Below the pieces are notes generated by a model, which was not told the origin of the DNA, made no database searches, and saw only the letters and a list, made by a program, of their open reading frames with translations. Below, piece after piece: positions 12,301-29,290 of a stretch of DNA of 64,000 nt; the stretch's first letter is position 1; each line of letters begins with the position of its first letter. The translations under genes and the position numbers were made by a program. The stretch is from contig CAVYHV010000010.1 in the NCBI GenBank assembly GCA_963768425.1, forward strand, positions 64,001 through 128,000, read 5' to 3'. Source of the stretch: Candidatus Bathyarchaeota archaeon (GTDB lineage Archaea > Thermoproteota > Bathyarchaeia > Bathyarchaeales > Bathycorpusculaceae).

Positions 12301-12366
12301 AAAGGAACCACATTCACAATATGTTTGCCCCCTCAAAACCAGGTCCGCAAACGAAATTTTAAATAA
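9342..12366 (+). pseudogene. Multi-PAS sensor histidine kinase broken by about 3 frameshifts and one in-frame TGA (11415-11417)
   Basis: Repeated PAS/PAC ends (DITERKKAE), H-box GHDIRNPL, NLVNNAVQAM, DTGVGI and GFGL boxes across five ORF fragments. Confidence 0.85.
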
Positions 12367-12616
12367 GGAAATAACCTTAACGAAGCTTCGCCCATCGTCT
12401 CATAACGTGTTCTTGCACTATGCTCCCTTAGAGGAAATCCGCCCCTAAGCGACTAAGTTTTATTAACCAACAAGCGTCAGTTGGACGCTTCCAGAAAATT
12501 GTTGATGAATTTACAAAAGCGCAAATGACCGTAGCAAATCGGAAAGAAATGCAAATAAAGAAGCATGTGGATTAACATCGCCAGACCAACTCTCGAAGAG
12601 TCTTAGTATAGTATGT

Positions 12617-12694
12617 GCGGTCGTAGTCTAGTTTGGTCTAGGACATCAGCCTGCCACGCTGACGACCCGGGTTCAAATCTCGGCGACCGCACCA
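12617..12694 (+). tRNA. tRNA-Gly(GCC), intact, encoded CCA
   Basis: GCGGTCG/CGACCGC acceptor, TCAGC-CTGCCAC-GCTGA anticodon arm, CCGGG-TTCAAAT-CTCGG T arm. Confidence 0.97.
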
Positions 12695-12876
12695 CAGCCT
12701 CACCTGAATCTGGGTTCAAAAACCATAGAGAGCGAAACCATTTCAGAACCAATTGAAAACATTTTCCGTGCCAAGTCATACCCACGCCAGACCTATTTTT
12801 TGTCAAGGGAAAATTGGTTGAGAAACACTATCCTCTAGAATTACTGTTTTGCATAGTTGCGTGTTTTTGATGGTTT

Positions 12877-13824
12877 TTAAGTTTCAATCTTACATATTCT
12901 TTCGTTTATATCTGTTGCATGATGCCACAATTCTTCGAAGAAGGCTTTGAGTGTGCAGACAAAAGCTTCACTGTTGGTCCATAAACCTGTTTCCTGTCGA
13001 TTGGTTAAGGCTGAATCTCCATCCAGAGTTATGAAGAAAAAAGCTTCTGCCTCGTCTATTAGATAGAAATGCGGGTAAAGTTTTAAAGACGAGTTTATGT
13101 CGCGAACCTCGACGTTTAGATGGTTCTCAGAAACCATTTTGCTGCTCTGTCTTATTATGTCAATGTTTTCATTCGAGAGGTGAGTAAGAACTCTAACGCG
13201 AGTTGAAGTTATGTCCTCTCTTTCCGTAGGCTGGATGATGTCTGCTTTGGCAAGTCCCGCTTTTATGATTCCTACTTGATCCGCTTGAATTACGCCATGA
13301 TTGGTGGTCACTACTAGCAGTTCTCTCTTCCATTCCTCGACCAACTGTAAGATTTTGGAGTATATGTTTTTCCTTCCTTCTATAATAGCAAATCTTTCGA
13401 CGGGAGATGCGGACTCTTGTAAATTGATGGATCTCCATTGAGTTAACAGCTCATTTTTATTGTCCTCAAGGAAGCTAATATCATCCTTCTTGGTTTTGAT
13501 AAGCAGCTCGATAAGCTTCTCGAAAGGAACAGCAGTGTATCGCGCCGGCTTTTCTAAGGTTAAATTCACCATACATCTGCTCTCTAGGTCCTTTAGGATG
13601 CGATACACCTGCCCTTTGTGCATATTGAGACTTCTAGATACGTTGTATGCTCTTTGAGAGCCATTCTTAGCTAGAAAAACGTAAACTTTCGATTCATTTT
13701 CTGTCAATTTGAAATCTCTTAGGACATTGGAGATGGTTTTTTCGCTCAAAGACACCGTTTTCCGTTGCGAGTAGTCACACATCTGTGTGACTGCCCAAAG
13801 CTTATAACTTTTTCTTAGCCACAT
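12877..13824 (-). CDS. TrmB-family transcriptional regulator (start probably at 13782 or downstream)
   Basis: LTENESKVYVFL wHTH, P..YTAVP, C-terminal effector-binding domain ending FEELW. Confidence 0.9.
   Translation of the reverse strand: MWLRKSYKLWAVTQMCDYSQRKTVSLSEKTISNVLRDFKLTENESKVYVFLAKNGSQRAYNVSRSLNMHKGQVYRILKDLESRCMVNLTLEKPARYTAVPFEKLIELLIKTKKDDISFLEDNKNELLTQWRSINLQESASPVERFAIIEGRKNIYSKILQLVEEWKRELLVVTTNHGVIQADQVGIIKAGLAKADIIQPTEREDITSTRVRVLTHLSNENIDIIRQSSKMVSENHLNVEVRDINSSLKLYPHFYLIDEAEAFFFITLDGDSALTNRQETGLWTNSEAFVCTLKAFFEELWHHATDINERICKIET
13773..13808 (+). promoter_or_regulatory. Palindromic operator AGTCACACA-TC-TGTGTGACT directly upstream of BRE/TATA (CCCAAAG-CTTATAAC) of the surface-protein gene
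   Basis: Perfect 9-bp inverted repeat 13773-13792; TATA-like element about 50 bp upstream of ATG 13856. Confidence 0.6.
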
Positions 13825-13855
13825 CAGATTCTATAGACCAAAAAGGAGAAAAAAA

Positions 13856-16594
13856 ATGAATTCTACAATAGGTAAAATTGGAGCTATCTCGCTATCATTT
13901 TTGATGATATTTGCAATTGTGGCAGCCTTTGGATCATTGGCATCAGGGCAGATCACTATTCCAACCATAGCCTTTTGCAACGTTGCCCCTGACCCCTGTG
14001 GAGTAGGGCAACAAGTCACCGTCAACTTCTGGCTCGCAACACCAATACCCGGAGCCGAACTTGCAACAAACCTAGAGGTCGTTGTAACTCCTCCAGGCGG
14101 AACAGCCACAGTACTCGGCAACTTCACAGCCGACTACACCGGAGGAACATACACTCACTACATCCCAACCACAGTAGGCAACTACACATTCCAAATGTTC
14201 TACGGCGGACAAAAACTCACAGGATTCGGCGAAAATGGACCTTCCGCTTTTAAAGGAGACTTCATGGGATCCAGCACTAGCAACGTAGTTACACTTGTCG
14301 TGCAGCAACAGCCGGCAGGCGGCATCCCGACTACTCCGCTGCCGAACTCATGGTGGCAGACACCAGTTAACTCAAACAACGTCCAAACCTGGTACAGCGT
14401 CACCGGACCTTGGCTAGGATTAGCCGCTAACGCTTTCGGCGCAACAGGCGCATACAATGATTCAGGCAACGAAAACCCATACACTATGGGCCCAGTTACA
14501 GGACACATCCTGTGGACTAAACCATGGTGCATCGGCGGTGTCGCAGGCGGAGATGCAGGCGGAAACGAACAGTCAGGCAGTTACTATACCACCTCGCAGT
14601 ATGAACCAAAATGGAACCCAGTAGTGATCGATGGCATAGAATACTCAACATGGTACACGACAACAACCTCATACGATAACGGCATAGTAGCAACAGACCT
14701 CTATAACGGACAAACACTATGGGTGCTCAACACGACGAACGCACTGGTAGGTGGAATGCAAGCAATCTATGAAACACCAAACCAGTACGGCGTAGTTGGA
14801 CCATACATCATAACTACAGGAACTCTGCCAGGAGTCAACGATAGAGTCGATCCGTTCCTTGGACCAGAAGGCGAATACAACCTCTACGACGCTTTGACAG
14901 GCACTTATGTCTGCAGCATTGTCAACGGAACCACACCAGGCGCTGGCTTCGCAGGAGGCTTCATGACCGTGGACCAATACGGCAACTGGGTAGGATACTA
15001 CACCAACACTACCTTCTACTCACCAGGGCCATTCTCTTTGCCACCCTCAGCCTATTTCATGCCGCAACACACGACTGGTGGAGACCCACTACGTAATGCG
15101 AACCTTACAGGACCGGCACTTGTCGCTTGGAACATGACTATGGCACTCGGCGAAACAGAAGCGGCAGGACAATGGGGGATCGCGGCAGGCTCCGTATTCA
15201 GTTTTGACGATGGAGTAATGTACGTTGCACAGTCAATACCGACAACATTTAACGGTGTTCCTCTTGAGTCACAGGGCTTCTTCGGTCCAAGCTATCTAAA
15301 CGGCGGAGGACTATCAATTGGACAAATTGCAAGCGGCGTCATTGTTCTGACAGTAGGATTCGGCGCAACCAGCGTCGGAGACACAGCAGGATGGGCAGTA
15401 TCAGCAGGCTTCAGTCAAGCAACCGGCGCACTTCTATGGGGACCAATCAACAGGACATACACGCCATACACAAGAATCAGCTCGAACTTCTACAACTTGG
15501 CAGCAGACGGAGCCTACGTTGAATGTGACGAAAACACATTCGTAACCACAGGCTACTCACTGTTCACAGGCCAACAGCTCTGGCAAATAACATTGACCGG
15601 ACCAAACGGCGGACCTCCAAACTCTTACGACGACTACGGCATACAGACCGTTGTTGACTCAACGACCGGCATAATTTACCTGTGGGGCTTAGGCGGAGAC
15701 ATATGGGCAATCAACATGAACACCGGCAAAATCTTATGGCAAACTTCAACTACCCTGCTTCAGGGCACACCTGGAACTGAAACCCCATATGGCATCTGGC
15801 CAATATGGGTCCAATACGGCGGCATGATGGCAGGCGGAAACAACGTACTATACCTCTCAGAAGGACACGAATACAGCCCACCACTATTCCACGGAGCACA
15901 AATGCTAGCCATAAACGGCACCACAGGAGCCTTAATATGGAAAGAACTAGCGTTCGACGACACAGCAGCAGAAGTCTCATACAACATAATTACCGGGTAC
16001 AACTCCTACGACGGCCAAATCTACGCATATGGACAAGGACCAAGCAAAACAACCGTTACCATACCTGACCCCATTACAGCTGTTGGCGCCAAAGTAATGA
16101 TTGAGGGCCGAGTCACCGACGTCTCACCGGGCGCGTCACAACAAGCAGTCGCATTAAACTTCCCCAACGGGCTACCATGCGTATCTGACGCAAGCATGAG
16201 CCAGTTCATGGAAGCGGTTTATGAACAGCAACCAATGCCACATTCAACAGGAGTTCCAGTCACACTAACAGTTTTAGACAGCAACAACAACTACCGAACA
16301 ATCGGCACAGCAACTACGAATGTCTTGGGAGACTACTCATTTGCGTGGACGCCTGACATACCAGGCAACTACACTGTATACGCCACTTTCGCAGGCACAG
16401 GGGGATACTATTCGTCTTCTGCTTCCACAGGACTCTACGCCAACTCTGCAGCAGCGACACCGGCACCGACGGCAACACCGCTTAGCGGAATAGCAACTCA
16501 ATCGACAGTCGAATACATAGGCGTCGCAATAATCATCGTAATAATCATAATCGGCGCGCTGACAATGCTCATGCTCAGCAGAAAAAGACCATAA
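13856..16594 (+). CDS. Large membrane-anchored surface protein (PQQ-like beta-propeller repeats, Ig-like domains), paralog 1
   Basis: Signal peptide; repeated (D/N)xxTGxxLW blade motifs; Thr/Pro linker, C-terminal TM helix and SRKRP tail; blocks shared with paralogs 2 and 3. Confidence 0.88.
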   Translation: MNSTIGKIGAISLSFLMIFAIVAAFGSLASGQITIPTIAFCNVAPDPCGVGQQVTVNFWLATPIPGAELATNLEVVVTPPGGTATVLGNFTADYTGGTYTHYIPTTVGNYTFQMFYGGQKLTGFGENGPSAFKGDFMGSSTSNVVTLVVQQQPAGGIPTTPLPNSWWQTPVNSNNVQTWYSVTGPWLGLAANAFGATGAYNDSGNENPYTMGPVTGHILWTKPWCIGGVAGGDAGGNEQSGSYYTTSQYEPKWNPVVIDGIEYSTWYTTTTSYDNGIVATDLYNGQTLWVLNTTNALVGGMQAIYETPNQYGVVGPYIITTGTLPGVNDRVDPFLGPEGEYNLYDALTGTYVCSIVNGTTPGAGFAGGFMTVDQYGNWVGYYTNTTFYSPGPFSLPPSAYFMPQHTTGGDPLRNANLTGPALVAWNMTMALGETEAAGQWGIAAGSVFSFDDGVMYVAQSIPTTFNGVPLESQGFFGPSYLNGGGLSIGQIASGVIVLTVGFGATSVGDTAGWAVSAGFSQATGALLWGPINRTYTPYTRISSNFYNLAADGAYVECDENTFVTTGYSLFTGQQLWQITLTGPNGGPPNSYDDYGIQTVVDSTTGIIYLWGLGGDIWAINMNTGKILWQTSTTLLQGTPGTETPYGIWPIWVQYGGMMAGGNNVLYLSEGHEYSPPLFHGAQMLAINGTTGALIWKELAFDDTAAEVSYNIITGYNSYDGQIYAYGQGPSKTTVTIPDPITAVGAKVMIEGRVTDVSPGASQQAVALNFPNGLPCVSDASMSQFMEAVYEQQPMPHSTGVPVTLTVLDSNNNYRTIGTATTNVLGDYSFAWTPDIPGNYTVYATFAGTGGYYSSSASTGLYANSAAATPAPTATPLSGIATQSTVEYIGVAIIIVIIIIGALTMLMLSRKRP

Positions 16595-16700
16595 TCGAAA
16601 TAGAAAAAACATTTCCCTTTTTCTTTTTTTGTTTCTTGATTCCTTGTTTAAAAAATAAAAATGGAGGGTTTTTTGAGAGATTGTTTGCTTTACATTCTCT

Positions 16701-17477
16701 TTAGTACTTCTGATTGTGTTGTGGCTGGAGTTGTTTTGCTGGATTTGTTTTGGGATAGTGACGAAGCATTTGTCCGCCTACTATGATAAACCATAGAGCG
16801 ACGGCTGGCACGCTGACTAAGAAGAACAAACCGATGATGGTAGAGCTAACTCCAAGTGCATTGAAGGCTCCGATAACTGCCATCATGTTTGTGACTATAC
16901 CAAAGACTGCGGTTCCCCTGCGGAATGAGTTGGTCTTAAGCATGGCAATTGCGAACAGAAGTGGACCAATTGTAAGGAAGTAACTTATGAAAGTCATGAG
17001 TGGTAGCGCATTAACAATGCCCGTGGCATTTGTGATTACTGATGCTTTAGAGGACTCAGTTGTGGCAATCATGTATGCTTGTGAGTAGCTAACGAGTCGT
17101 AAGGACTGCAACTCGGATACTAATGGGTCGTAGATGCAGAAAGCAAGGGTCAGGATGGCTCCGCCAACTGCGAGATTTTTGGTTGCAGGTTTTAAGATTA
17201 TGTAGAATGCCACAGTTATGGGAACGAATATTATGTCTGCCACAATCCAAAGGGTCCAGCTAGTTGCCGCTAAAGCCTGATGTTGAGAGAAGAGCTGCAG
17301 AAAGCCTGTGACAGTGGTTGGTACACCGTGTGGGTAAAGACCCATCTCCGTGTATGTGACTGCAACCCACAGGATGCCCATTATGACTGCCAAGATTCCG
17401 CTGATGCGTAAGAACCCATTCCAGCGCGGAGCAACCAATGGCGTCGGTGTTTCTGATGATTTATTCATCTTTTTCAC
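16701..17477 (-). CDS. Integral membrane protein, DUF4386-like
   Basis: About 6 TM helices. Confidence 0.7.
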   Translation of the reverse strand: MKKMNKSSETPTPLVAPRWNGFLRISGILAVIMGILWVAVTYTEMGLYPHGVPTTVTGFLQLFSQHQALAATSWTLWIVADIIFVPITVAFYIILKPATKNLAVGGAILTLAFCIYDPLVSELQSLRLVSYSQAYMIATTESSKASVITNATGIVNALPLMTFISYFLTIGPLLFAIAMLKTNSFRRGTAVFGIVTNMMAVIGAFNALGVSSTIIGLFFLVSVPAVALWFIIVGGQMLRHYPKTNPAKQLQPQHNQKY

Positions 17478-17712
17478 CTCCCGTGCTCTTGCTTTCTTTG
17501 ATTTCGTTTTGGGAAAGGTTAATCCTTAGAACACCCTTGTCGCCAACAACTTCAAGGATTACGTCTTCAGCAAACGATGCATGCTGAAGTTGACCTAATG
17601 TGCCTTCCAAAAGGACGTTTTCCAGACCGCTGTTGGTCAAGGTGACGTTTTTTAGGCTGACCTTGGATTTCAGTTCAACAGAGAAGAATCGTTCTTTCAA
17701 TGTTTTTTCCAT
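17461..17712 (-). CDS. Small hypothetical protein
   Basis: 83-aa beta-rich ORF with GAGG RBS, overlapping the downstream gene start. Confidence 0.7.
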   Translation of the reverse strand: MEKTLKERFFSVELKSKVSLKNVTLTNSGLENVLLEGTLGQLQHASFAEDVILEVVGDKGVLRINLSQNEIKESKSTGGEKDE

Positions 17713-17819
17713 TTTACATTCCTCAAATAAACTTCAGAGGCGTTGAGCTCCCATTAGTTTTATTTAACAACATTGTATAGTACAATACAACGCTGTAAAG
17801 TGCCAAACAGAAGTGACGG

Positions 17820-18572
17820 TTGACCTCTTTGGAAGAAAGCGAAGGAATAGACAGATTATTTTACGAGCTTGCAAGCGAAAACAGACTGAGTATACTCATA
17901 GCGCTGCAGACCAAAAACCATAAGATGCAGGAACTAGCTCGAAAACTTGACTTAACGGACACGGAAGCATTCCGGCAACTGCAACGTCTTAGCGAAGCCC
18001 AACTAATCAACAAACAACCAGATGGCACATACACCATAACCGAATATGGCAAACTAATTCTGAAGTTTTCACACTCTTTTGAGTTTGCATTCAAATTCAA
18101 ACAGTGCCTCTTAACACGTAATATCTGGCGAATTCCCGACGAATTCATCAACCGACTCGGCGAGCTATCAAACGCCAATTTAAGCACAAATGCAATAGAA
18201 ATGGTCAACAACGCAGAACAACTCGTCATGGGAACTGAAGAATACCTCTGGATGATCGGTGAGCGACCCCTAAGCTTTCTAGGCGCAAGAGTCGCGGAAA
18301 TGCTTCAAAAAGGAATAACGGTAAGATTTCTGTTCGATGAGAGCTGCCACAAATTCTACGAAAACATGCCAGACGTTAGGGGCGTAATTGAAAAAAGAGT
18401 AATCCCATCCATTCCCGCTATCCTGATTATAAACGAAAAATTCGCAGGCATAAACATACTATCCATCGATGGTAGAGCAGACAACGCCATCTTTTACGGT
18501 AACGATCCAGGAATTCTGAAGTGGACAAATGATTTGTTTTTACATTATTGGGCTCAAGGCAAACGTTGCTAG
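17820..18572 (+). CDS. ArsR-type HTH regulator with DUF1724/FilR1-like C-terminal domain
   Basis: LASENRLSIL HTH, DGTYTITEYG, WTNDLFLHYW C-terminus; upstream palindrome ATTGTA-TAG-TACAAT (17772-17786). Confidence 0.85.
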   Translation: MTSLEESEGIDRLFYELASENRLSILIALQTKNHKMQELARKLDLTDTEAFRQLQRLSEAQLINKQPDGTYTITEYGKLILKFSHSFEFAFKFKQCLLTRNIWRIPDEFINRLGELSNANLSTNAIEMVNNAEQLVMGTEEYLWMIGERPLSFLGARVAEMLQKGITVRFLFDESCHKFYENMPDVRGVIEKRVIPSIPAILIINEKFAGINILSIDGRADNAIFYGNDPGILKWTNDLFLHYWAQGKRC

Positions 18573-18762
18573 CGGACTCTGGAGTATTCTTTTTTGTGTC
18601 ATTACAGAAAGGAAAGTCTCTAACCACAACTTTTAGAGGAAGGGGGCGAACCCATTGTCAGGAAAATTTGGGCGAGAGGGCATTGGCGGGCCCTTTGTGA
18701 TAGATGCCGCATGCAGAAGGTACAGGGCAACGTTTTAGTGCCAAAGCCACGCACACATACGC

Positions 18763-19617
18763 TTGATCACAGTGCAGACGACCAAATATCACATCTACAT
18801 CGAGTATAGTGAGCCTGACAAGTCTGGCTTCCGCTTCAACGTTTCCCACGCAGAATTAATAGGGAAATTCCAAGAACCATTTGCCAACGGCGAACCCTTC
18901 TGGTTTATGGGACGTCTCCTCAATCCAATCAAAGTCGCCAAAATCGTTATCTTTTGGTCCTACCAAACGGCTGACCAACTGCATTTACCCAACCATGAAA
19001 GCCTCATAGCGACTAAAGACAAAAAATACCTCATCGACAACCTCCTCAAAGGCAAAGTCAAAGGCGTTTACCTATGCACCGAGGAATTTGTGGCTGTGAC
19101 CCAAAAAAAATCGGCTCAAGCCATACAAGCTCAACCGATAGTTTCAACTCCAAGTGGCATACCCAAGCGAATAATCGTTGTTTCTGGAACAGATGAAATA
19201 ATGAAACAAACTATCACTGGAGCTTTGAGAAAACTCGGCCTCGCCGCCATAGTCATGAGTGAAGAACCCAGCCAGGGCAGAAAAATCGTCGACCGCTTCG
19301 CAGACTACACCGATGTGGGCTTTGCTTTGGTGTTGCTTTCGCCTGACGTTTACGTTTACCCGAAGGGGGAAGAAGCTACAAAACGCGAACGCATCCCAAA
19401 GCAAGACGTTACTTTAATGTTTGGCTTCCTCTTAGGTAAACTTGGGAAGGATAAGGTGCTCGCCTTCTATAGGGAAAGCCCAAACTTCGCCTTTCCAATA
19501 GAGTTCGAAGGCGTTAAATTCACAGCTGTAGACGACCGCGACAGTTGGAAACTTGCCCTCATACGTGAACTCACCAACTGCGGCTATACGATTGATGCTG
19601 AGAGACTTTTAAGGTAA
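18763..19617 (+). CDS. TIR-like (CAP12/Pycsar-effector type) domain protein with an unknown N-terminal domain
   Basis: KLGL..IVMSE....GRKIVDRF....DVGFALVLLSPD and GFLLGKLG match this TIR-like family. Confidence 0.82.
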   Translation: MITVQTTKYHIYIEYSEPDKSGFRFNVSHAELIGKFQEPFANGEPFWFMGRLLNPIKVAKIVIFWSYQTADQLHLPNHESLIATKDKKYLIDNLLKGKVKGVYLCTEEFVAVTQKKSAQAIQAQPIVSTPSGIPKRIIVVSGTDEIMKQTITGALRKLGLAAIVMSEEPSQGRKIVDRFADYTDVGFALVLLSPDVYVYPKGEEATKRERIPKQDVTLMFGFLLGKLGKDKVLAFYRESPNFAFPIEFEGVKFTAVDDRDSWKLALIRELTNCGYTIDAERLLR

Positions 19618-19671
19618 GATCACAAATACTACAAAACCAAAATGTCAATGCAGACCTAACAAAACAGCAAA

Positions 19672-19747
19672 GCGGTTGTATTGTAGTTCGGTAGGACATT
19701 AGCTTCCCAAGCTGAATACCTGGGTTCAAATTCCGGCGGGCCTGCCA
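19672..19747 (+). pseudogene. Degenerate tRNA-Gly(CCC)-like copy with a non-pairing 3' acceptor strand
   Basis: GCGGTTG...AGGACA-TTAGC-TTCCCAA-GCTGA...CTGGG-TTCAAAT-TCCGG-CGGGCCT-GCCA; D stem and acceptor stem disrupted. Confidence 0.75.
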
Positions 19748-20013
19748 TCGTCCCGAGCGAATATGAACTTTTTGAATTCTTCTATGGGTTAAGATTCCGT
19801 CAATCGTATTGAGTCTCGTATTGAGTCTTGTTGTTTTTTTTCTGTTGAAGAAAAAGATCTATTTATGTTCAAGCAATAAACTTTTCAAAAAGAGTTCGAA
19901 GTCTATTTTGACTTGGATCACACGTTTTGTGAAAAGGAGGATAATTGCCTTAGTTTATAGTGCCTAATGCAAGCGAAACAACTTGTGGATTGTGCAAATG
20001 CCGCATTCCGAAT

Positions 20014-20781
20014 TTATTCAGTTTTGCTTGTTTCACCTTTCGACGCTGAATTCCAAATCAGCTCAAAATGACTTTGAATTACGCCAACGAAATAGGCATT
20101 GTCTGACCACAAGTATTTAGCTCTTTGAAAATCAATGGTTGTTCCAAAGAATATTTCTTTCTTGTCTATTATTACCGCCGCGGCTGGAATAGGGGACGTA
20201 GCATACCGTATCTTAAAACATGAGTTCTCGGTAAGAGCCTGAGGGACCTCCAACTGTAACTGTTTGTCTTTAGGGTTTTCCATAAGATATCGAAACCTAA
20301 CACCCCTTCCCGCTGCTTTCTCTAGAACTTCTTCACTTGAAACAATCACTTGTTTGAAAATCCCAGGTGTTATGAACGAATCGACAGCAGTTGACGCATT
20401 ATTGATGGCCTCTTCTATTCTAAGAACACGCGCTTGTCTTTCGGATAGCAAAAGAAATTGAGCCCCTTCTTCATGGTGCACAGTTCCATTGTAGTTATGG
20501 TCTAAATCTTGAAGTAAACTTCTTGTCCTTATTTGTAATTCATCGTATTCGGCAGTCTTACGTTTCATCAATATGTTTAGACTGTTTTTTATAGGAGTGG
20601 CTCTGAACATAACCGGCTTGGTTATCGCTTTCTCACATAAACCCATTTTTTCCAGAATGGACACAACTGTGTAGACATCTTGGCGCGCGACCTTTGACAC
20701 TTGCGAAATCGTTTTGGCGGTTGACATTCCAGAAATTAAAAGAGCTAGGTAAACTTTTGCCTGCCTATGCGATAGCCCCAA
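20014..20781 (-). CDS. TrmB-family transcriptional regulator
   Basis: GLSHRQAKVYLAL, VARQDVY, LWSDN...FELIW; frame stays open upstream of the listed start. Confidence 0.9.
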   Translation of the reverse strand: MGLSHRQAKVYLALLISGMSTAKTISQVSKVARQDVYTVVSILEKMGLCEKAITKPVMFRATPIKNSLNILMKRKTAEYDELQIRTRSLLQDLDHNYNGTVHHEEGAQFLLLSERQARVLRIEEAINNASTAVDSFITPGIFKQVIVSSEEVLEKAAGRGVRFRYLMENPKDKQLQLEVPQALTENSCFKIRYATSPIPAAAVIIDKKEIFFGTTIDFQRAKYLWSDNAYFVGVIQSHFELIWNSASKGETSKTE

Positions 20782-20978
20782 CTGCTTTAGGGTCTGTATG
20801 TGTTCATGTAGAAGCTTGATGTTTTCCAGCTCTTTCAGAGAGATTTAATCCTCCTTCTTTTGCTTGAATTTGCTGATCGGGGCTTTGGTATTTGTCCCTC
20901 GGACTTCGTGCTACACATAATTAAATGTAAGTAACGAATTATATTTTTCCCCTAATAGGTTTCTGGAGAGTTTTAGAC

Positions 20979-21368
20979 ATGACAAAACCTCTCAATCTGA
21001 ACAAGTTAGCTATTGGGAAATCAACCGAAGAAAAAATTTTAGCGCCGGTTCCATATACCAATGGTTTTCATTTCTTTACAAACACAGGCCAATACACAGG
21101 AGAAACCGCTGTTAGTTTGGCAACCTTCGCCAAAGAAGTTGAAGTCGCACCAATTGAGTCGATTGATTTTCATTTCAAAAGGGCTGACTTTCAAAAGTGG
21201 ATATCAGAAACTGTTGGAGACGCTGAATTGGCAACAGCAATCGGACAAATTGAAAAAGAACTTAATGGAGAGCCGTTGAGAAGAAGAATTCTCAAGATCG
21301 TGAATGAACGCGTAAGTGAACTTGAGAGGCAAATTCAACATGCAAGCATCCCGGGTAGCAAGAAATAA
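20979..21368 (+). CDS. DUF5752-like protein
   Basis: GFHFFT...SIDFHFKRADFQKWISETVGDAELA motif. Confidence 0.75.
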   Translation: MTKPLNLNKLAIGKSTEEKILAPVPYTNGFHFFTNTGQYTGETAVSLATFAKEVEVAPIESIDFHFKRADFQKWISETVGDAELATAIGQIEKELNGEPLRRRILKIVNERVSELERQIQHASIPGSKK

Positions 21369-21381
21369 CTAATCAAACAGG

Positions 21382-21984
21382 TTGGCGATTTTTATGGTGG
21401 TGGCTTTTGATTTTCTGGATGTTATGGCGTGGGATGTTTCTCTAAGCGCGTTCTTATTATGCATGGGAGCGATTATGCTTCGTTACAAGGTTCAATCAGG
21501 TTTAATTGATGAAAACACTGGAAATTCAGGAAAGGGATTCGCAATCGCTGCAGGAGCAGCGGGATCTTACCTGTTTCTGTCAGGCATGGTAATCAGTTTC
21601 AAGTGGGTCTTCGCTCTTTCAGGCGGAGTGTACAATGTACTCTTCGGCGGAATTGCTACGCTTGGGGGGTTGGTGCTTTTGACGGGCGCAATCGCGTTAT
21701 TCTTGAATGTCAACCTGAAACCTGTTTCTTACTTCGCCGCTGTGGTAGGCTTGTACGCTTTTGTAGATGCATATTCTATGTTAAAATACAGCCTTACCTC
21801 CAATCCGTTGCTTTCCGCCTTAGGATACATGTCTTTCGCTGCCCCTGCACTTCTATCTGTCCCCGCAACTCATCTGGAAAATAAGTGGTGGAAATGGCTC
21901 TTCGTGATATTCTCTCTGTTGTTTGCAATCGCATGGCTCTACCAAGCAGCTAACTTCACATACGCGCATCTAAACCCCTCATAA
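21382..21984 (+). CDS. DUF981-like membrane protein
   Basis: About 6 TM helices, G.YNVLFG motif. Confidence 0.7.
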   Translation: MAIFMVVAFDFLDVMAWDVSLSAFLLCMGAIMLRYKVQSGLIDENTGNSGKGFAIAAGAAGSYLFLSGMVISFKWVFALSGGVYNVLFGGIATLGGLVLLTGAIALFLNVNLKPVSYFAAVVGLYAFVDAYSMLKYSLTSNPLLSALGYMSFAAPALLSVPATHLENKWWKWLFVIFSLLFAIAWLYQAANFTYAHLNPS

Positions 21985-22129
21985 GCCTGTTGGAAAAAAT
22001 GGAAATGAAACAAGAAAGAAAAGTTAAACGCTGGCGAGAATATTTTTTTGCGCAAAAGATCCTTTTTGGAAAGATTTATGGATTTTTGGGAATGGTAACT
22101 GTGAGTTCTGAAGTGCATCTTTATGGCTA

Positions 22130-23080
22130 GTGACCGATGGCTATCTTGAGTGGAATGAACTGACATATCAAACGTATTTTGATGAAACAAGAAAGGAGAT
22201 GGATTCTGAGATTTCGAGTCTTATCCGAAAAGTCGCGGATCTAAGGCTTCACGACAAAATCGTTTACGTGTTGCAGACTCGGGGAAAACTGTTAAGACCA
22301 ACATTAGTCTTGCTCTGTGGTCAGAGCGTAGGAGCAGACAAAGGGCCTTTGAAAAAGCTGGCTTTGGCCATCGAGTTGTTACATGAAGCTACACTGGTTC
22401 ATGATGATATTCTGGACAACGACAGTTTTAGAAGGAATGCTGTTGCTGTTCATGCTAAATGGGGCGTTAGAGACGCAATTTTGGTCGGGGACGCATTAGC
22501 GGCTCTTTCGCTTAACTTGGCTGCTGAATACGGTAAGGAAATCTCCAAAATAGTTTCGCAGACGTGCCTATTGCTTTGCGACGGGGAGTACATGGATGCT
22601 TCGATGGCTAATGCTGAGTTGTCTGAACGCGATTATTTTGAGAAAATTACTAAGAAGTCTGCCTCCCTCTTTAAGGTAGCAACTCTATGCGGCGCTATCG
22701 CGGGAGGAGGGTCCTCGCTTGAAAAAGATTCTTTGGCAGAATTTGGTGAAAAACTCGGAATAGCATACCAAATCCGGGATGATCTCTCTGATGTAACCAC
22801 ATTAAAAGAAGATTTAGCTCTCAACCTTAATGACTTCCAGACGCTTCCACTAATTCACATGAAAAACGAAGAAAAGGGGTCAAAAATAGAAGAGAATATA
22901 GAGCAAAAAATCATTCCAAAAGAACTCTGCGAACGATTGAAGGATACAGGTTCTCTGAATTATTGTACCAATAAAATTAACGAATACCTCGATGGAGCTG
23001 TTGTCAGCCTAGAATCACTTAAGAGAAGCGTTTACAAAAAGTATTTGGTCGAACTCGCGGAGTCGCTCAGGCACTCTTAA
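22130..23080 (+). CDS. Polyprenyl diphosphate synthase
   Basis: GKLLRP, LVHDDILD (FARM) plus RR, AYQIRDDLSD (SARM). Confidence 0.93.
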   Translation: MTDGYLEWNELTYQTYFDETRKEMDSEISSLIRKVADLRLHDKIVYVLQTRGKLLRPTLVLLCGQSVGADKGPLKKLALAIELLHEATLVHDDILDNDSFRRNAVAVHAKWGVRDAILVGDALAALSLNLAAEYGKEISKIVSQTCLLLCDGEYMDASMANAELSERDYFEKITKKSASLFKVATLCGAIAGGGSSLEKDSLAEFGEKLGIAYQIRDDLSDVTTLKEDLALNLNDFQTLPLIHMKNEEKGSKIEENIEQKIIPKELCERLKDTGSLNYCTNKINEYLDGAVVSLESLKRSVYKKYLVELAESLRHS

Positions 23081-23448
23081 AGGCGGATGTCCGTAATGTC
23101 GCGCAGGTTTATTTTTAGTAGCACAGCTGAAAAGTACGACCTGCAAAAAAGAACTGCTTGCAATCGTACAAACAATGCAGAACCGAACTCAAGCTAGAAC
23201 TCCATATCGATTGAGCCACACGCATTCTTAGCCGTAAAGTTTACTTCTTTTCAGCGCGCGCACTCTGAAAGAAAAGATCTTAATGCTAAAATAGGATTCG
23301 CTCAAATAACAGACTGTGCAAAAACTCAAATTAGATTTTGAAAATTGCGACTTATATGTGAAAATATGTCCTAAATGTCTATTATATTGAATTAAAAATA
23401 GCAATTTTCTGGAAATGAAATTAGTTTTTACACAGTCTCATAATTAGG

Positions 23449-23466
23449 CGAATCCCAGCGGGCCCA
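23449..23466 (+). repeat. Possible tRNA 3'-end fragment CGAATCCCAGCGGGCCCA (acceptor of a GGGCCCG-start tRNA)
   Basis: T-loop/T-stem/acceptor-like sequence in an otherwise AT-rich intergenic region; parent tRNA not in window. Confidence 0.45.
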
Positions 23467-23540
23467 TTAAAAAATTATCTTCTAAGGGAAAGGATTCACT
23501 TAATGCATCGAGCACGACTCTGATTTTCGAACTACTTTAC

Positions 23541-24458
23541 TTAGTTTTGGTCCTTGGTTCTCTCAAGAACTCTTCGAATAGCCGAGACAACACGATCAGG
23601 TCGATCTTCTTGAACAGAGTGTGAAGCATCATCAAGGGTCTCAGTTTCCTGCATCTTGAGAAATCCTTGCCACTTTTTCAGGTCTTTAGGTCCGAAACCG
23701 GGATCGTTCTTTTCCCCCCAGAGGATTTGTGTTGGCAGGTCACTAAGAATCGGGAGTTTTGACTCAATCTCTTTCAGCCACGCGTGTGCTTTTCGGATTT
23801 GCCCCGGGAAAATATAGGTGGGTTTTCTTGAGTTCACCGTCGGGAATGGGTCGGTGTAGGCTTTTCTCAAACTAGGTGTGACCTTTTCTTTGTGAAAAAT
23901 CCCGTCAGGTAACATAGCTTTTGCAAAGTAATTCCGGCGTGTTTGAAGCCAGTATCCAATGGGCCATCCTCCCATCACAAGTGAGAATAGTCTTTGAAGA
24001 AAGGATGCGGGCCATGCCCAAGTGTTCATCACAACAAGGCCGCGAAGGTTGGATCTATTCTGAACTGCATAGTTCATACCGATGGGTCCACCCCAATCTT
24101 GAACCACAAGGACGATGTTCTTTAATTCCAAGCGATGGACCAATTCGAAGACCGCCTCTGATTGTTCTTTGGGTGTAAACCCATATTGAGAAGGTGCTTT
24201 TGACATCCCGAATCCCGGATAATCCAAAGCAATTAAGCGACATTCTCCTCGCAATTCCATGATGATATTTCTGTAAATATATGACCATGTGGGATTTCCG
24301 TGAAGAAGCAGTACGGTGGGTCCTTTTCCTTCATCAACAAAATGAATATACCCATCACGATAGGATAGCCAATTGTCACTAAACGGGTATTCTGAGTCAT
24401 CAACTTCGAATGGCCTTTTCATAGCGTCTAATCCTTCAGTCATAATTTTTAACCTCAC
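23541..24458 (-). CDS. Haloalkane dehalogenase-like alpha/beta hydrolase
   Basis: HGNPTWS, DYPGFG, QDWGG nucleophile elbow, catalytic His region ASHSVQED. Confidence 0.9.
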   Translation of the reverse strand: MRLKIMTEGLDAMKRPFEVDDSEYPFSDNWLSYRDGYIHFVDEGKGPTVLLLHGNPTWSYIYRNIIMELRGECRLIALDYPGFGMSKAPSQYGFTPKEQSEAVFELVHRLELKNIVLVVQDWGGPIGMNYAVQNRSNLRGLVVMNTWAWPASFLQRLFSLVMGGWPIGYWLQTRRNYFAKAMLPDGIFHKEKVTPSLRKAYTDPFPTVNSRKPTYIFPGQIRKAHAWLKEIESKLPILSDLPTQILWGEKNDPGFGPKDLKKWQGFLKMQETETLDDASHSVQEDRPDRVVSAIRRVLERTKDQN

Positions 24459-24801
24459 ACAAACACAGACTGGTTCAGGAGTGAAAACCCGTATTCTCGA
24501 ATTTCTTCGAGTTCGGCTGTTTCCTTTCCCGTCTACTTAGCGATTTCATTCTGCAGACTAAGATAGGGAACTTACGACTATAAATGTTGGCTACATAATG
24601 AAGATATGATTGTTGTTTGCACAATGAATTCTATCGGACCATCAAATATTACCATGGCTCCCCAGTTTACGTTTCCTCCATACTTCACAAACAGGCTTTT
24701 GCAGTTTAGATATTCAACGTCAATAGCGCACTCAATCTCGCCGACTTTCTTGGCCCACAACAAGAGTTTGGTTTTGGACAAGAACCTGTTCAGAACTGCA
24801 A

Positions 24802-24817
24802 CTCGGCGACCGCACCA
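24802..24817 (+). repeat. Exact 16-bp direct repeat of the tRNA-Gly(GCC) 3' end (att or target-site duplication)
   Basis: CTCGGCGACCGCACCA identical to 12679-12694. Confidence 0.85.
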
Positions 24818-24861
24818 ATTCACTTTTTTACAGTTTAAGTGCCGTGAAAAAAGATAAAGAT

Positions 24862-24880
24862 TTTAAACTTTAAAAGTTTT
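24862..24880. repeat. 19-bp palindromic site, copy 1 (TTTAAACTTTAAAAGTTTT)
   Basis: Identical to 26101-26119; core AAACTTT-A-AAAGTTT. Confidence 0.7.
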
Positions 24881-24894
24881 AAGATTTACAATCA

Positions 24895-26073
24895 TCATTG
24901 CTCACGCGTTTTCAACCATTCACCAAAGAGGTTATCGGTCAGCCTATAAACTCCTCTTCCTTTTCTCACGATAATGCCTTTACCGACAAGCAAGTTTAAG
25001 GAAGAGCCGACAGTGTCCTTATCCATGAACTGCTGAGCTGCAATCTCGCTTGGTTTAATACCTGAAAATCGGGAAAGTGCTCTTAGCACCTTAACCTCAG
25101 AGGGTGTTAAGTCATCAACGAATTCCTTGAAAGAAAGCTCGCCCTCTTTTTGAAGAACTGTATTAACCACTCGCGTTATTTTTTCTGAATCAAGATCGTT
25201 TAGTCCCTCCAGTTGGATCTCACTTCCGAGTAGTTGTAAGTTGTAAGGAATGCCACTTGTAATTTGATGAAATTCTTCCAACACAGCTTTATTCGTGGGT
25301 CTCAAGTTCGGCAAATAGTGATGGAGAAACTCTTGTAATTCATATTCTTCGAAGGGTTCAATTTCACGCAAGAGAAGCTGCCTATAGAAGGGTGCACTCT
25401 GTTTGGCCACCAGATTCCTCATTGTCTGGCGGTAAGAACCTGAAATAACAAGCTTTGTATGCTTAAAGTCTTCGTAAAGCGTTCGTATTAACTTGATAAT
25501 GCTGAGGCCAATTTTTTGGTTTTTTGCTCCATATGTAAGCTCTACCATCGAAGGAAACTCGTCAATAATCAGGACAGAGGTCGTTCTGGTCATTTCTCCA
25601 AGATGCTCAATCAGGGAAAAACATCCTGTCAATGCAGCATCCACATCAGTCCCTTCTCTTCTTACAAATGATATTGATAGCTCAAGGTCATTCGCGACTT
25701 TAGCCGATAATTTTAGGCTCTGTAGAAATCGAGCCAGCGCCACTTTACCAGTTGCAAGCAGTTCTTCAAACTTAAATTTGGTTGGCAACCTGTCCTGATA
25801 GGCATTAATTGCAGCTCGATTCAAAACATTAACTAGCTCATCTATTGTGTTGGGTGAGACGCGCCATATCGACATATAAATTATGCGGACTTGTTTGCAT
25901 TCAGCTAACCTACGTTCAACTTCTTTTAGAATACTTGTTTTTCCAACCCTTCGAATTCCTAATAGTGAGAAGCCAATTTTATTTTTGGAAGTTAGCTGTT
26001 TGACTAATTCTGAGGTTATCTTCTTTCTTCCAACAAAATCATCTGCTGTGGCAGGAGTAAGAGTGAAAGCCAT
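24895..26073 (-). CDS. Archaeal P-loop ATPase (STAND/ATPase_2-like) with C-terminal winged helix
   Basis: FVGR, GIRRVGKTS Walker A, LIIDEF Walker B, ISGS, GIPYNLQ; start reassigned to MAFTLTP at 26073. Confidence 0.88.
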   Translation of the reverse strand: MAFTLTPATADDFVGRKKITSELVKQLTSKNKIGFSLLGIRRVGKTSILKEVERRLAECKQVRIIYMSIWRVSPNTIDELVNVLNRAAINAYQDRLPTKFKFEELLATGKVALARFLQSLKLSAKVANDLELSISFVRREGTDVDAALTGCFSLIEHLGEMTRTTSVLIIDEFPSMVELTYGAKNQKIGLSIIKLIRTLYEDFKHTKLVISGSYRQTMRNLVAKQSAPFYRQLLLREIEPFEEYELQEFLHHYLPNLRPTNKAVLEEFHQITSGIPYNLQLLGSEIQLEGLNDLDSEKITRVVNTVLQKEGELSFKEFVDDLTPSEVKVLRALSRFSGIKPSEIAAQQFMDKDTVGSSLNLLVGKGIIVRKGRGVYRLTDNLFGEWLKTREQ

Positions 26074-26100
26074 TTGTTCAACCTTGTAAATATTACAAGG

Positions 26101-26119
26101 TTTAAACTTTAAAAGTTTT
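26101..26119. repeat. 19-bp palindromic site, copy 2, in the ATPase promoter
   Basis: Identical to 24862-24880; 28-46 bp upstream of ATG 26073. Confidence 0.7.
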
Positions 26120-26268
26120 TGCTGGGAAATAAGAGGGGTTGATTGGAGATTTGATAAGTTTGGAACTACAATCAATTGTTGAATTATTTTTTATTGTATT
26201 TTTATTCCCAGTCCTGCCTGTAATCAGAGGTTTTTTCAACCCGACAGGAGAATATGGACTTATCTTGC

Positions 26269-26347
26269 GCGGTTGTCGTCTAATCTGGTTTAGGACATTA
26301 GCCTTCCAAACTAATGTTCCCTAGTCCAAATCCCGGCAACCGCATCA
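26269..26347 (+). pseudogene. Degenerate tRNA-Gly(TCC)
   Basis: Perfect acceptor GCGGTTG/CAACCGC; anticodon arm TTAGC-CTTCCAA-ACTAA with one mismatch; broken T stem and TCCAAAT loop; ends TCA. Confidence 0.82.
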
Positions 26348-26382: not shown

Positions 26383-27162
26383 TTAGTTGACCACTTTTCT
26401 GAATTGGTATAGGGTGGCGCCGAAAGTGAGAATGGCCATCAACCCGATAACCGCGTAAGCGTACCCAAATGTACTCCAACTCAAACCGCCCTGAACCAGC
26501 CCTCTTGTCACGTTAGAAACATAACTTAGCGGGTTGTAGTCAGATACGGTCCGTGCCCAAGCTGGCATGATGGAAACTGGGAAAAGAGCGCTGCTTACAA
26601 AGAGAAGCGGAAAAACCAAGAGATTACCCACTGCTGACACTGTTTCTGCCTTCCTTGTCTTCAAGCCTACAGCAAGCAAGAGCCCTGACCAAGCAAGACC
26701 GAAAAAGGCAAGAGTTACAAAAATAAGCAAAAGCCCGCCAACCCCCGTTACAATGTTTAACCCCAACAGCAACGCCAACCCAATTATTATGGCAGACTGC
26801 ATAATCAACACCAGCAAATCAGTTGCCAAACGGCCAAGCAAAATTGCTGCCCTGCTAGAAGGAGTTAGAAGTACCTTTGATAGGAAACCGGAATTAAGAT
26901 CATTTACAATAGACATACCTGACTGAAACGCGCCTGTAACAACTGTCAACACTAAGATTCCTGGAGTAAGGTATGTTAGATAGTTCCCCGACGGGCCTAA
27001 GAAAACGGAGAGTTTTTGCAGTAGCTGCGAAAAGAGGAGGAGGAACAGCAATGGTGTGAATAAATTGATGAAAAGAAGTGTGGGATTCCTTATTATTTTT
27101 GTGAAGGCTCTTATGAACAAGGATTGTGTATCATAAAGTAGGGTCATTTTTATTTGCCTCAC
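26383..27162 (-). CDS. ABC-2 type exporter permease (DrrB-like)
   Basis: 6 TM helices, YLTPGIL, SSALFP...MPAW...NPLSY. Confidence 0.92.
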   Translation of the reverse strand: MRQIKMTLLYDTQSLFIRAFTKIIRNPTLLFINLFTPLLFLLLFSQLLQKLSVFLGPSGNYLTYLTPGILVLTVVTGAFQSGMSIVNDLNSGFLSKVLLTPSSRAAILLGRLATDLLVLIMQSAIIIGLALLLGLNIVTGVGGLLLIFVTLAFFGLAWSGLLLAVGLKTRKAETVSAVGNLLVFPLLFVSSALFPVSIMPAWARTVSDYNPLSYVSNVTRGLVQGGLSWSTFGYAYAVIGLMAILTFGATLYQFRKVVN

Positions 27163-28154
27163 ATTAAGAATGCTTCGGTGGTTTTCCTACCGAGTTCTTC
27201 CGGTCTGATTCTTCTGCCAGTATGATGCAAGAAAACATCATCAAGGGTTGGAGAAGACATATTCAAGGAGGTCGGTCGCATATTATTGCGATCCAGTGCC
27301 GTAACTATGTCGGCTATTATCTCGTTTGCATTCTTCGCGTGGACAACAATACCCCCATCAGAATCAGTAACATCAGCAACTCCAGGGACTTCTTGAAGAA
27401 CTCTTTTTGTTTCAGATCTCAAAACTGGGTCTTTTGGGTTCTTAAACGAAAGAGTAATGCTGTCATGTCCGATTGCTTGCTTAAGCTCGGATGGTGACCC
27501 TTTAGCGATAATCTGGCCATGATCGATTATTGCGAGTTGCCGACAAAGTCTGTCTGCTTCCTCCAAATACTGTGTAGTTAAAAATATTGTTATTCCTTCG
27601 TCTCTGTTCAGCTGATCTAAGTAATCCCATATTGTTGCGCGTGATTGAGGATCAAGTCCAGTTGTGGGTTCATCCAGGAAAAGGAGTTTAGGCTTATGGA
27701 TTAATGCAGAGGCCAGATCAAGCCGTTTCTTCATGCCTCCAGAATATCTTCCTGCAGGTTTATCTGCGAATTCTTCAAGTTGCACCATCTTCAACAATTC
27801 ATCTACACGGTTTTCAAGAGGGCTTCCATGCATCTGTTCTAGACGTCCTTGAAGCCGAAGGTTTTCCTTGCCTGTTAGGTCGACGTCAACAATTGTTTCT
27901 TGGCTAAGTACTCCTATGACTTTGCAGATTTCCTTTGGTGACTGGTCTAAATCGTAACCTGCCACTTGGGCGTTGCCTGAGGTTTTTCTTAGGAGCGTGG
28001 TTAGGACTTTGATTGTAGTGCTTTTCCCCGCCCCGTTAGGTCCCAGAAATCCGAAAAACTCGCCTTCTTTGACGTCGAAGGAAATGCCGTCAACTGCTTT
28101 TGTCCCGTCGGGGTAGACTTGGATTAAGTTTTGCACTTTTATTATTTGCCGCAT
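27159..28154 (-). CDS. ABC-2 exporter ATP-binding protein (DrrA-like)
   Basis: [36 protein letters not shown]. Confidence 0.94.
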   Translation of the reverse strand: MRQIIKVQNLIQVYPDGTKAVDGISFDVKEGEFFGFLGPNGAGKSTTIKVLTTLLRKTSGNAQVAGYDLDQSPKEICKVIGVLSQETIVDVDLTGKENLRLQGRLEQMHGSPLENRVDELLKMVQLEEFADKPAGRYSGGMKKRLDLASALIHKPKLLFLDEPTTGLDPQSRATIWDYLDQLNRDEGITIFLTTQYLEEADRLCRQLAIIDHGQIIAKGSPSELKQAIGHDSITLSFKNPKDPVLRSETKRVLQEVPGVADVTDSDGGIVVHAKNANEIIADIVTALDRNNMRPTSLNMSSPTLDDVFLHHTGRRIRPEELGRKTTEAFLM

Positions 28155-29265: not shown

Positions 29266-29290
29266 AAAATCACCTTTTTAAATTCTCCTA

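Follow-up and report, generated by a model that had tools for sequence, protein, structure and literature searches.

How can pieces of several different tRNA genes come to stand in a row, all on one strand and between unrelated blocks of genes, in DNA that encodes no recombinase? The question is raised by positions 12617-26347 of a 64,000-nucleotide stretch of the genome of a Candidatus Bathyarchaeota archaeon. This stretch, here called the window, is G000:C10:64001-128000, where G000 is the analysed genome (a metagenome-assembled genome, or MAG, of 2.96 Mb that is 91% complete), C-numbers are contigs, and other G-numbers are relatives in the same genus. The region is probably a composite island, which would have grown by serial site-specific integrations, off-target ones included, at attachment (att) sites derived from tRNAs, with a recombinase acting in trans. 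Judged from their sequence, the tRNA pieces are most likely the scars of repeated DNA insertions.

Islands linked to tRNA genes are a main route by which prokaryotes gain genes; very little is known of them in Bathyarchaeia, a lineage that is abundant in soils and sediments and has not been cultured. At this locus, islands are still changing though no recombinase is encoded, and att scars of unlike tRNAs lie in a single array. Literature searches on integrases, tRNA genes and mobile elements in Bathyarchaeia, and on chimeric tRNAs, integrases and islands, listed no description of such arrays.

Probable scars of several tRNA genes in one array

One end of the island is formed by an intact, regenerated tRNA-Gly(GCC) gene, found by both ARAGORN and Rfam; it is the only tRNA that ARAGORN calls in the island region (coordinates of all features are collected in Table 1). 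A gene 100% identical to it is present in 12 of the 61 genus genomes that were searched. Its last 16 nt recur exactly at 24802-24817, as a displaced direct repeat at the far end of the island, 12.1 kb downstream. This 16-mer has two matches in the window, a number reached in 0 of 100 shuffles.

Two further pieces are full length. The tRNA-Gly(TCC)-like relic (26269-26344) is missed by ARAGORN and scores 43.7 bits against the Rfam tRNA model, for which the cut-off is 29 bits. Its T stem has two mismatches and its anticodon stem one, its T loop is altered, and TCA replaces CCA. A working tRNA-Gly(TCC) gene, scoring 62.4 bits, is found at C8:120846-120925 and is 89.6% identical to the relic over 77 nt. 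The acceptor stem of the relic differs from that of the working gene by two changes, at position 6 and its partner, with pairing kept, and over its last 18 nt the relic is the same as the tail of tRNA-Gly(CCC) in relatives; these features may point to past function or to another hybrid origin.

The other full-length relic scores 28.6 bits over 19677-19744, just under the cut-off, with an unpaired acceptor stem in which three pairs are broken. By the criteria of the cloverleaf, both relics appear to be dead as tRNA genes. The relic at 19672 had been described as a decayed tRNA-Gly(CCC). Over the first 66 nt it shares 86% identity with an intact and intron-less gene, the tRNA-Gly(CCC) of G005; the last 29 nt or so match the 3' end of the G000 tRNA-Arg(GCG) at 90%. 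By sequence comparison it is a Gly(CCC)/Arg chimera rather than a plain decayed Gly(CCC), and such a hybrid tRNA records recombination between two different tRNA types. A reciprocal Arg/CCC chimera was searched for in G000 and none was found; C11 holds only an Arg-type relic.

The fragment at 23449 appears to be a genuine tRNA 3' piece as well, of Arg rather than Gly type. Positions 23451-23465 are an exact 15-mer of the tRNA-Arg(GCG) 3' end, which 0 of 100 shuffles match. All five tRNA-like features of the preliminary description are therefore present where it placed them, on the + strand; one of them is a chimera, and another is of Arg type.

The Arg-type site has two arms that lie about 135 nt apart in the window and are contiguous in G094, G076 and G064. 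In these three genomes the compact form of the site has an 8-bp inverted repeat, and the right arm of this repeat overlaps with the tail of tRNA-Arg. The structured site also has three copies behind tRNA-Arg(CCG) on C8 and one on C19, four loci picked by eye from 21 matches to a regular expression for the inverted repeat; overall, that expression is not enriched (21 matches versus 17 in the control). No inverted-repeat structure was seen in the GCC-type and TCC-type sites. A T-arm-like motif resembling the T arm of tRNA-Arg lies at 12706-12727, twelve bases past the end of tRNA-Gly(GCC); it may be another decayed scar, or chance.

Evidence that tRNA tails are scattered more widely can be found across the genome. 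The 3'-end 14-mers of 33 tRNA genes have 36 non-tRNA sites, compared with 3 for reversed controls, while the 5'-end 14-mers of the same genes have 5 such sites, compared with 6 for controls. Some of these tails form further arrays. Three Ala-type sites lie within 6.6 kb of tRNA-Ala(CGC) at G000:C10:27862-34448, an array follows tRNA-Arg(CCG) on C8, and a mixed Ser/Ala series is found at C17:10000-32500. In the Ala-type array on C10 and the Ser/Ala array on C17, all tails are on one strand, and neither contig has an integrase. Fragments of tRNA tails offer a practical marker for flexible regions in MAGs.

The glycine tRNA genes that the relics resemble have working copies elsewhere in the genome. 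Besides the tRNA-Gly(TCC) on C8, a tRNA of 42.9 bits is found at C22:42877-42982. ARAGORN calls it Gln; when a 28-nt insert is removed, its halves read as tRNA-Gly(CCC), near-identical to the intron-less genes of relatives. It can be read as a functional tRNA-Gly(CCC) with a non-canonical intron inside the anticodon stem. Several relatives instead have intron-containing Gly(GCC) or Gly(TCC) genes. Because working Gly(TCC) and Gly(CCC) genes are present on other contigs, the CCC and TCC relics would be spare as well as dead. The CCC relic has no intron and therefore is not derived from the resident gene on C22.

Two simpler origins of the relics can be set aside. Sequencing error was rejected as the cause of their defects, since independent assemblies (G092, G016, G105 and G091) carry relics with mutations of their own. 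The relics are thus neither the only Gly(CCC) and Gly(TCC) genes of this genome nor products of faulty sequence, either of which would have undermined the preliminary description. The TCC relic was also considered as the native TCC locus, and this was rejected because the adjacent ABC transporter has orthologs in G004 and G013 that lack a neighbouring Gly tRNA. These orthologs, and one in G016 that has no Gly tRNA beside it either, are 76-79% identical to the window's genes; in G013, a tRNA-Ala(CGC) lies beside the ortholog.

Exchange of blocks at the sites among relatives

Upstream of tRNA-Gly(GCC), gene order is kept among relatives, with protein identities of 93-96% in G047 and 79-86% in G003, G071, G038 and G033. 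Downstream, orthologs of the window's island genes are found in none of 14 loci. In G047 (on contig C2), the downstream genes are orthologous to G000:C9:240186-250639. Because this downstream synteny maps to C9, a larger rearrangement must have a breakpoint at tRNA-Gly(GCC).

The GCC-type site at the far end of the island consists of an arm followed by the 16-mer core. When this arm-plus-core pattern was scanned in 120 genus genomes, 12 matches were obtained in 10 of them and none in the reversed control. In four genomes the site, 35 nt long in these linked islands, shares a contig with tRNA-Gly(GCC), at a distance of 12.1 kb in G000, 9.7 kb in G093, 4.5 kb in G032 and 2.9 kb in G130. No pair of these four islands (0 of 6) is similar by blastn, and Pfam finds an integrase in none of the four complete islands. 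Their cargo includes a P-type ATPase, CDF and VIT1 in G093, and PFK and PPDK in G032. To the right of the site, the flanks diverge directly after the last base of the tRNA (...CCA) in all 6 copies compared.

Smaller units are also gained and lost. G092, at about 90% nucleotide identity, keeps the order of hydrolase block, 16-mer, TCC relic and ABC transporter. Its 16-mer has one change, and its TCC relic, also decayed, scores 37.9 bits and has mutations different from those of the window copy. Slot D, bounded by the 16-mer and the TCC relic, holds a 1.45-kb ATPase-MarR gene in G000; in G092, a 0.72-kb MazE/PIN pair takes its place. Both genomes also have the hydrolase in the hydrolase slot, which separates the Arg site from the GCC site; this slot is empty in G094, in G032 and on G076:C18, and is occupied by other DNA on G076:C50. 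The hydrolase itself is found at other places in 8 genomes, at 82-91% identity. In slot D, in the hydrolase slot and in the GCC islands, differences in presence and absence among relatives are bounded by att sites. The proposal that the locus is an accretion hotspot with a cassette-like layout is upheld by these comparisons, in which relatives gain, lose and swap blocks exactly at the relics.

Block B (window 19870-23309) is 93% identical to a block on G094:C122 and 89% identical to one on G093:C9, where tRNA-Ser-type 3' ends lie on its left. To its right, G094 has an Arg(TCT)-type site and then, after about 75 nt, a GCC arm-plus-core site and another Ser-type tail, with no hydrolase.

An example of a bona fide insertion at a native tRNA gene can be found in G047. 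There, a homolog of cassette D (83% nucleotide identity) lies between the native intron-containing tRNA-Gly(TCC) and its 46-nt repeat. Other insertions of 1.3-2 kb, flanked by near-full-length tRNA repeats, are present in G007, G005, G047 and G043. They carry an AAA_14/DUF4143 ATPase in G007 and G005 (the G007 protein matches PADLOC PDC-S01 at 3e-112) and a DUF6036 nucleotidyltransferase with a helix-turn-helix (HTH) protein in G047. The att repeats of relatives span the tRNA from positions 8-10 to the end. It had been argued that full-length relics with different anticodons could not come from simple att duplication; given repeats of this length, full length by itself does not speak against it.

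The TIR gene of the island provides a concrete case of a host defence gene mobilised with part of a neighbouring tRNA. The encoded protein matches Pfam CAP12/Pycsar TIR (3.7e-13) and, over its full length, the PADLOC candidate PDC-S35 (3.7e-40). A homolog stands directly upstream of an intact, intron-less tRNA-Gly(CCC) in G001, G005, G007, G011 and G012. The survey covered 41 full-length loci from named genomes, after 2 partial matches had been dropped. Among genes less than 84% identical to the window's, a threshold chosen post hoc in related and hence non-independent genomes, a tRNA-Gly lies within 1.5 kb downstream in 26 of 31 loci; at 84% identity or above, it does so in 0 of 10. Since the gene is the usual upstream neighbour of an intact tRNA-Gly(CCC) in more distant relatives, it would have been imported with part of that tRNA. 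In G000, the tRNA-Gly(CCC) on C22 adjoins the gene block C22:43207-52095, which also precedes tRNA-Gly(CCC) in G001, G007, G011 and G012 (4 of the 6 TIR loci examined), so that the C22 locus is syntenic with theirs.

The left edge of the TIR module, at 18705, is sharp and is common to G016, G105, G047, G113 and G116 at 87-95% nucleotide identity. The front part of the CCC tRNA continues into a tRNA-Leu(TAA)-type T arm in G016 and G105, and into yet another 3' end in G091. One TIR module is thus found at three different hybrid junctions, all within the T arm. Some 150 nt upstream of the module, G016, G105 and G047 also have the 3' part of a tRNA-Leu(TAA). The G047 copy is part of a 7-kb insert between orthologs of two adjacent genes of G000 contig C6. 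The G016 copy (G016:C9:13100-33099) stands beside a 729-aa Piwi-domain (Argonaute-like) protein and a 703-aa PLD-nuclease protein; the locus also holds a 37-aa remnant of an integrase of the type found on G000 contig C14.

These cases bear out, for the TIR gene and for cassette D in G047, the earlier suggestion that DNA adjoining other tRNA-Gly loci is imported. The arrays are broader than that suggestion, which was limited to Gly, for their sites are also of Arg type in the window and of Ser, Leu and Ala type in relatives.

Assembly of the island

The absence of an integrase, already remarked on in the preliminary description, was confirmed by two routes. Pfam detects none in the 25 open reading frames (ORFs) of 9.3-30 kb or in 43 further ORFs of the window, and a six-frame search with PF00589 of the whole genome gave 7 matches, none of them on C10 (an integrase of the pTN3 type was not specifically searched for). 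Because the island has no recombinase, the enzyme would act in trans, or else the elements have lost theirs. G000 has five intact tyrosine recombinases on other contigs, among them one of 453 aa directly behind tRNA-Leu(TAA) on C14 and one of 454 aa on C28. On G003:C1, a divergent recombinase-like ORF of 435 aa begins 55 nt after tRNA-Gly(GCC), with a sub-threshold PF00589 score of 21.7 bits; the protein has no homolog in G000. A similar 435-aa ORF is found on G093:C14, and the two may represent a divergent integrase family of Bathyarchaeia. The tRNA-Gly(GCC) site thus appears to be used by integrase-bearing elements in the genus, though the island itself has none.

The order of events and the crossover points that we infer are as follows. 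Cassette D, with a site of its own resembling a whole tRNA-Gly(TCC), would have inserted into tRNA-Gly(GCC) by a crossover at the 14 terminal bases common to both tRNAs, with the TCC-like relic left on the distal side of the cassette. The GCC gene, once regenerated, would have received further insertions, which moved D outward and left the arm-plus-16-mer site. The modules in between would have arrived with tRNA-derived sites of their own, Block B with an Arg-type site and the TIR gene with the front of a tRNA-Gly(CCC). Finally, the Gly(CCC)/Arg chimera would be a hybrid junction, formed when two sites of unlike tRNA type recombined in shared T-arm sequence.

Several observations weigh against this model. 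The island contains neither an integrase nor a recognisable integrase remnant, and tblastn of the five G000 integrases against 62 loci gave just two short fragments, in G093 and G016. Blocks A and B consist of ordinary regulatory, surface and lipid genes without any hallmark of a mobile element, and the regulator and surface protein pair of Block A is not flanked by tRNA genes elsewhere. A simple model with one crossover does not fit some junctions: the CCC/Leu junctions of G016 and G105 stop short of the Leu acceptor strand, and for Block B a single crossover was rejected, as Arg-type 3' ends lie at both of its ends. Some of the differences in presence and absence could be deletions instead of insertions. 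G000 is a MAG of 33 contigs with 4.75% contamination, and several of the relatives' loci are on short contigs. No excision product was shown in the sequencing-run data, which consist of low-share assembled contigs.

These data come from four runs, as assembled contigs only, and hold at most 0.13 of the sampled words in any run; depth and gaps are uninformative. No run of RNA was among those listed. Contigs of relatives in the runs break away from the window at 12694, at 23328 and at 26249-26252. One contig of run X5 (depth 2.4) joins 23438 back to 12669 with six letters between. The joint is compatible with a circle, a tandem or another layout in a relative, and was given no weight.

Other explanations can be offered for the same array. 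Its sites and blocks recall an integron-like system, that is, a working exchange platform in which small integrase-less cassettes, often a lone defence or toxin-antitoxin gene, with sites mimicking tRNA 3' ends are shuffled among tRNA-linked arrays by a promiscuous recombinase encoded elsewhere. Such a platform would account for the way single cassettes change partners: cassette D lies between TCC sites in G047 and between GCC and TCC sites in G000, Block B is bounded in G094 by Ser and Arg(TCT) sites and in G000 by the CCC/Arg chimera and the Arg(GCG) site, and the hydrolase has its Arg-type site on the left in G000 and on the right in G064. It would also account for content swapped inside fixed sites between G000 and G092, for four complete GCC islands without an integrase, for cargo that includes the PADLOC candidates PDC-S35 and PDC-S01 and the MazE/PIN pair, and for the 8-bp inverted repeat of the Arg-type site, which overlaps the tRNA tail as expected of a core recombinase site. 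All of these points, however, are equally expected from decayed ordinary integrative elements. No dedicated integrase adjoins the arrays, genes on both strands leave no common promoter logic, the sites are heterogeneous and many are decayed, and no circular cassette was seen in the run contigs. The inverted repeat is hardly more frequent than in the control, and the full site is limited to the four loci picked by eye. We therefore regard a platform of this kind as rather unlikely.

Recombination without any site-specific enzyme was the other mechanism proposed in the preliminary description. Here, once foreign chromosomal DNA had been taken up, the cell's homologous recombination would use the tRNA as an anchor, or tRNA genes and tRNA-like repeats would give rise to deletions and rearrangements. 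The TIR gene came with the front of its neighbouring tRNA, much as flanking chromosomal DNA would; tRNA-Gly isoacceptors are 82-90% identical over about 75 nt, and the rearrangement between G047, the closest relative, and G000 contig C9 breaks at tRNA-Gly(GCC). Against this, identity at the junctions amounts to just 14-16 nt, or to the T loop alone, whereas archaeal homologous recombination is reported, for Thermococcus kodakarensis, only at lengths of 500 bp or more, as cited in PMC5495485. The flanks diverge exactly at the last tRNA base, and 3' but not 5' ends are enriched, which fits the site preference of an integrase. Homologous recombination is accordingly improbable.

An ancestral tandem cluster of three tRNA-Gly genes (GCC, CCC, TCC) that decayed in place once duplicates had arisen elsewhere, with unrelated genes inserted between its members, would explain a series of isoacceptors on the same strand throughout. 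As G092 has the 16-mer, the TCC relic and the ABC flank, part of the array must be older than the split between G000 and G092. Yet no CCC or TCC gene is found downstream of tRNA-Gly(GCC) in any of 14 relatives, the native C22 locus holds an intron-containing gene in G000, and the CCC relic is fused to Arg sequence, travels with the TIR gene and is placed elsewhere in G016, G105, G047 and G091. Mis-assembly of the MAG is countered by the same junctions in independent assemblies. Decay in place or mis-assembly is highly improbable as the source of the array.

Serial and off-target integration shares many features with known systems. Islands that pile up at tRNA genes by repeated integration are described in the Islander work (PMC4383910, as outlined there). 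For integrated elements of Thaumarchaeota, PMC6563490 gives in outline a median att length of 17 bp, targeting of 3' ends and re-use of sites. In the tycheposon islands of Prochlorococcus, partial tRNAs are scattered and newer elements push older ones in, as sketched in bioRxiv 10.1101/2020.12.28.424599. Like tRNA islands in general, the present island is bounded on one side by an intact tRNA, whose 3' fragment recurs as a displaced direct repeat; older insertions appear to have been pushed outward by newer ones, partial tRNAs lie within a variable region, and there are cargo and defence genes. Its att sequence of 16 nt is close to the median stated in PMC6563490. Unlike those islands, it has no integrase or remnant; its scars derive from several tRNAs and are not copies of the island tRNA, one of them is chimeric, and one module brought along the gene upstream of its source tRNA.

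A mechanistic precedent is the integrase of the plasmid pTN3 in Thermococcus, an enzyme that was identified and tested and that, by the account in PMC5495485, recombines different tRNA genes and causes large inversions in Thermococcales. As proposed here, an archaeal tyrosine integrase acts there beyond its cognate site. The same account includes synteny breaks between unlike tRNA genes (Leu/Gly, Leu/Thr) and a crossover in the 3' half of two tRNA-Gly genes. In contrast to that case, the products in Bathyarchaeia would be insertions and hybrid scars. The microcin H47 island of E. coli, as reported in outline in PMC3191183, is likewise short, flanked by direct-repeat att sites and without an integrase of its own; it is mobilised in trans, with experimental evidence for excision. 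It is a single bacterial island, unlike the archaeal array.

Integron cassettes are small, often consist of one gene, lack a recombinase of their own and are delimited by structured sites that vary; their exchange takes place at fixed positions beside a conserved anchor. The small recombinase-less cassettes found here, exchanged at fixed positions by a conserved anchor, are similar to them. In the present array, however, no intI-like gene or other recombinase lies at the tRNA end, cassette genes are on both strands, and the sites derive from tRNA 3' ends rather than from attC hairpins.

A more general process is possible, though less likely than not. Small integrase-less cassettes, many with one defence or toxin-antitoxin gene and each ending in a mimic of a tRNA 3' end, might be exchanged at tRNA tails throughout Bathyarchaeia, and perhaps in many archaea. 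Trans-acting recombinases of relaxed specificity would move them, crossing over in any tRNA-like site at its T arm or its 3' end. If so, this exchange would yield arrays of mixed type, hybrid tRNA scars and, occasionally, the capture of host genes next to tRNAs, such as the TIR gene. Should the enzyme acting in trans be found, the locus would offer a testable model of how defence and accessory genes circulate in archaea without known plasmids or conjugation.

Cargo and neighbouring genes

The island genes lie on both strands and form the blocks listed in Table 1.

Table 1. Features of the tRNA-anchored island and its right flank (window positions).
Feature	Position	Strand	Basis
Intact tRNA-Gly(GCC), island anchor (attL side)	12617-12694	+	ARAGORN; Rfam 64.1 bits
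Block A	12695-18704	.	Pfam
TrmB-like regulator (Block A)	12877-13824	-	Pfam
912-aa PQQ/Ig-like surface protein (Block A)	13856-16594	+	Pfam
DUF4386 membrane protein (Block A)	16701-17477	-	Pfam
83-aa ORF (Block A)	17461-17712	-	
Winged HTH (wHTH) regulator (Block A)	17820-18572	+	Pfam
TIR module; TIR-domain gene 18763-19617, candidate defence gene	18705-19671	+	
Chimeric relic, 5' ~64 nt of intron-less tRNA-Gly(CCC) and tRNA-Arg(GCG)-type 3' end, apparently joined in the T arm	19672-19748	+	Rfam, sequence comparison
Block B	19749-23293	.	Pfam
TrmB regulator (Block B)	20014-20781	-	Pfam
DUF5752 (Block B)	20979-21368		Pfam
DUF981 (Block B)	21382-21984		Pfam
Polyprenyl synthetase (Block B)	22130-23080		Pfam
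Arg-type att site, left arm 23294-23310 and tRNA-Arg 3' piece 23447-23466	23294-23466	+	Exact 15-mer, sequence comparison
Cassette C, alpha/beta hydrolase 23541-24458	23467-24780	-	Pfam
GCC-type att site, ~20-nt arm and last 16 nt of tRNA-Gly(GCC)	24781-24817	+	Exact copy, shuffle test
Cassette D, single gene 24895-26175: archaeal ATPase (ATPase_2) fused to MarR-type wHTH	24818-26268	-	Pfam
Decayed full-length relic resembling tRNA-Gly(TCC), interpreted as the right att site of cassette D	26269-26347	+	Rfam
Right flank, ABC-2 permease and ABC ATPase	26383-28154	-	Pfam

In Block A, the pair of TrmB-like regulator and surface protein is 82% identical to a pair on G093:C5 and 80% identical to a paralogous pair on G000:C9, neither of which is tRNA-flanked. 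No orthologs of Block A were found behind tRNA-Gly(GCC) in 14 relatives. Pairs of a TrmB-like regulator and a large PQQ/beta-propeller Ig-like surface protein form a multi-copy family, with members at 12877-16594 and 33970-40468 of the window and at G000:C9:66863-69632, and with dozens of matches at 65-80% nucleotide identity across the genus.

Cassette D has a weak match to PADLOC PDC-S27. Scans of viral contigs with the cassette D and TIR proteins, which reach close relatives only, found no relatives of either. The ABC genes of the right flank are 91% identical at the nucleotide level to genes on G092:C49, where they adjoin the relic too. Window positions 28281-32377 and 33970-46891 are absent from G092:C49, which is otherwise collinear at about 90% nucleotide identity; no tRNA-like piece was found at their edges.

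Short ORFs overlap two of the att sites, at 12603-12806 and at 24578-24823, the latter without a Pfam match. Elsewhere in the window, genes are split into adjacent or overlapping ORFs at 9342-12366, 6757-8759, 48311-48899 and 50188-51343. The split genes are a PAS/HisKA/HATPase histidine kinase in five pieces, an ABC-2 transporter, a flavin reductase and an SBF symporter. They are either many pseudogenes or indel errors of the assembly. When introns are allowed, ARAGORN also calls a tRNA-Leu(CAA) with a 77-nt intron at 318-471 of the window; its ends resemble tRNA-Phe in a short-word BLAST comparison.

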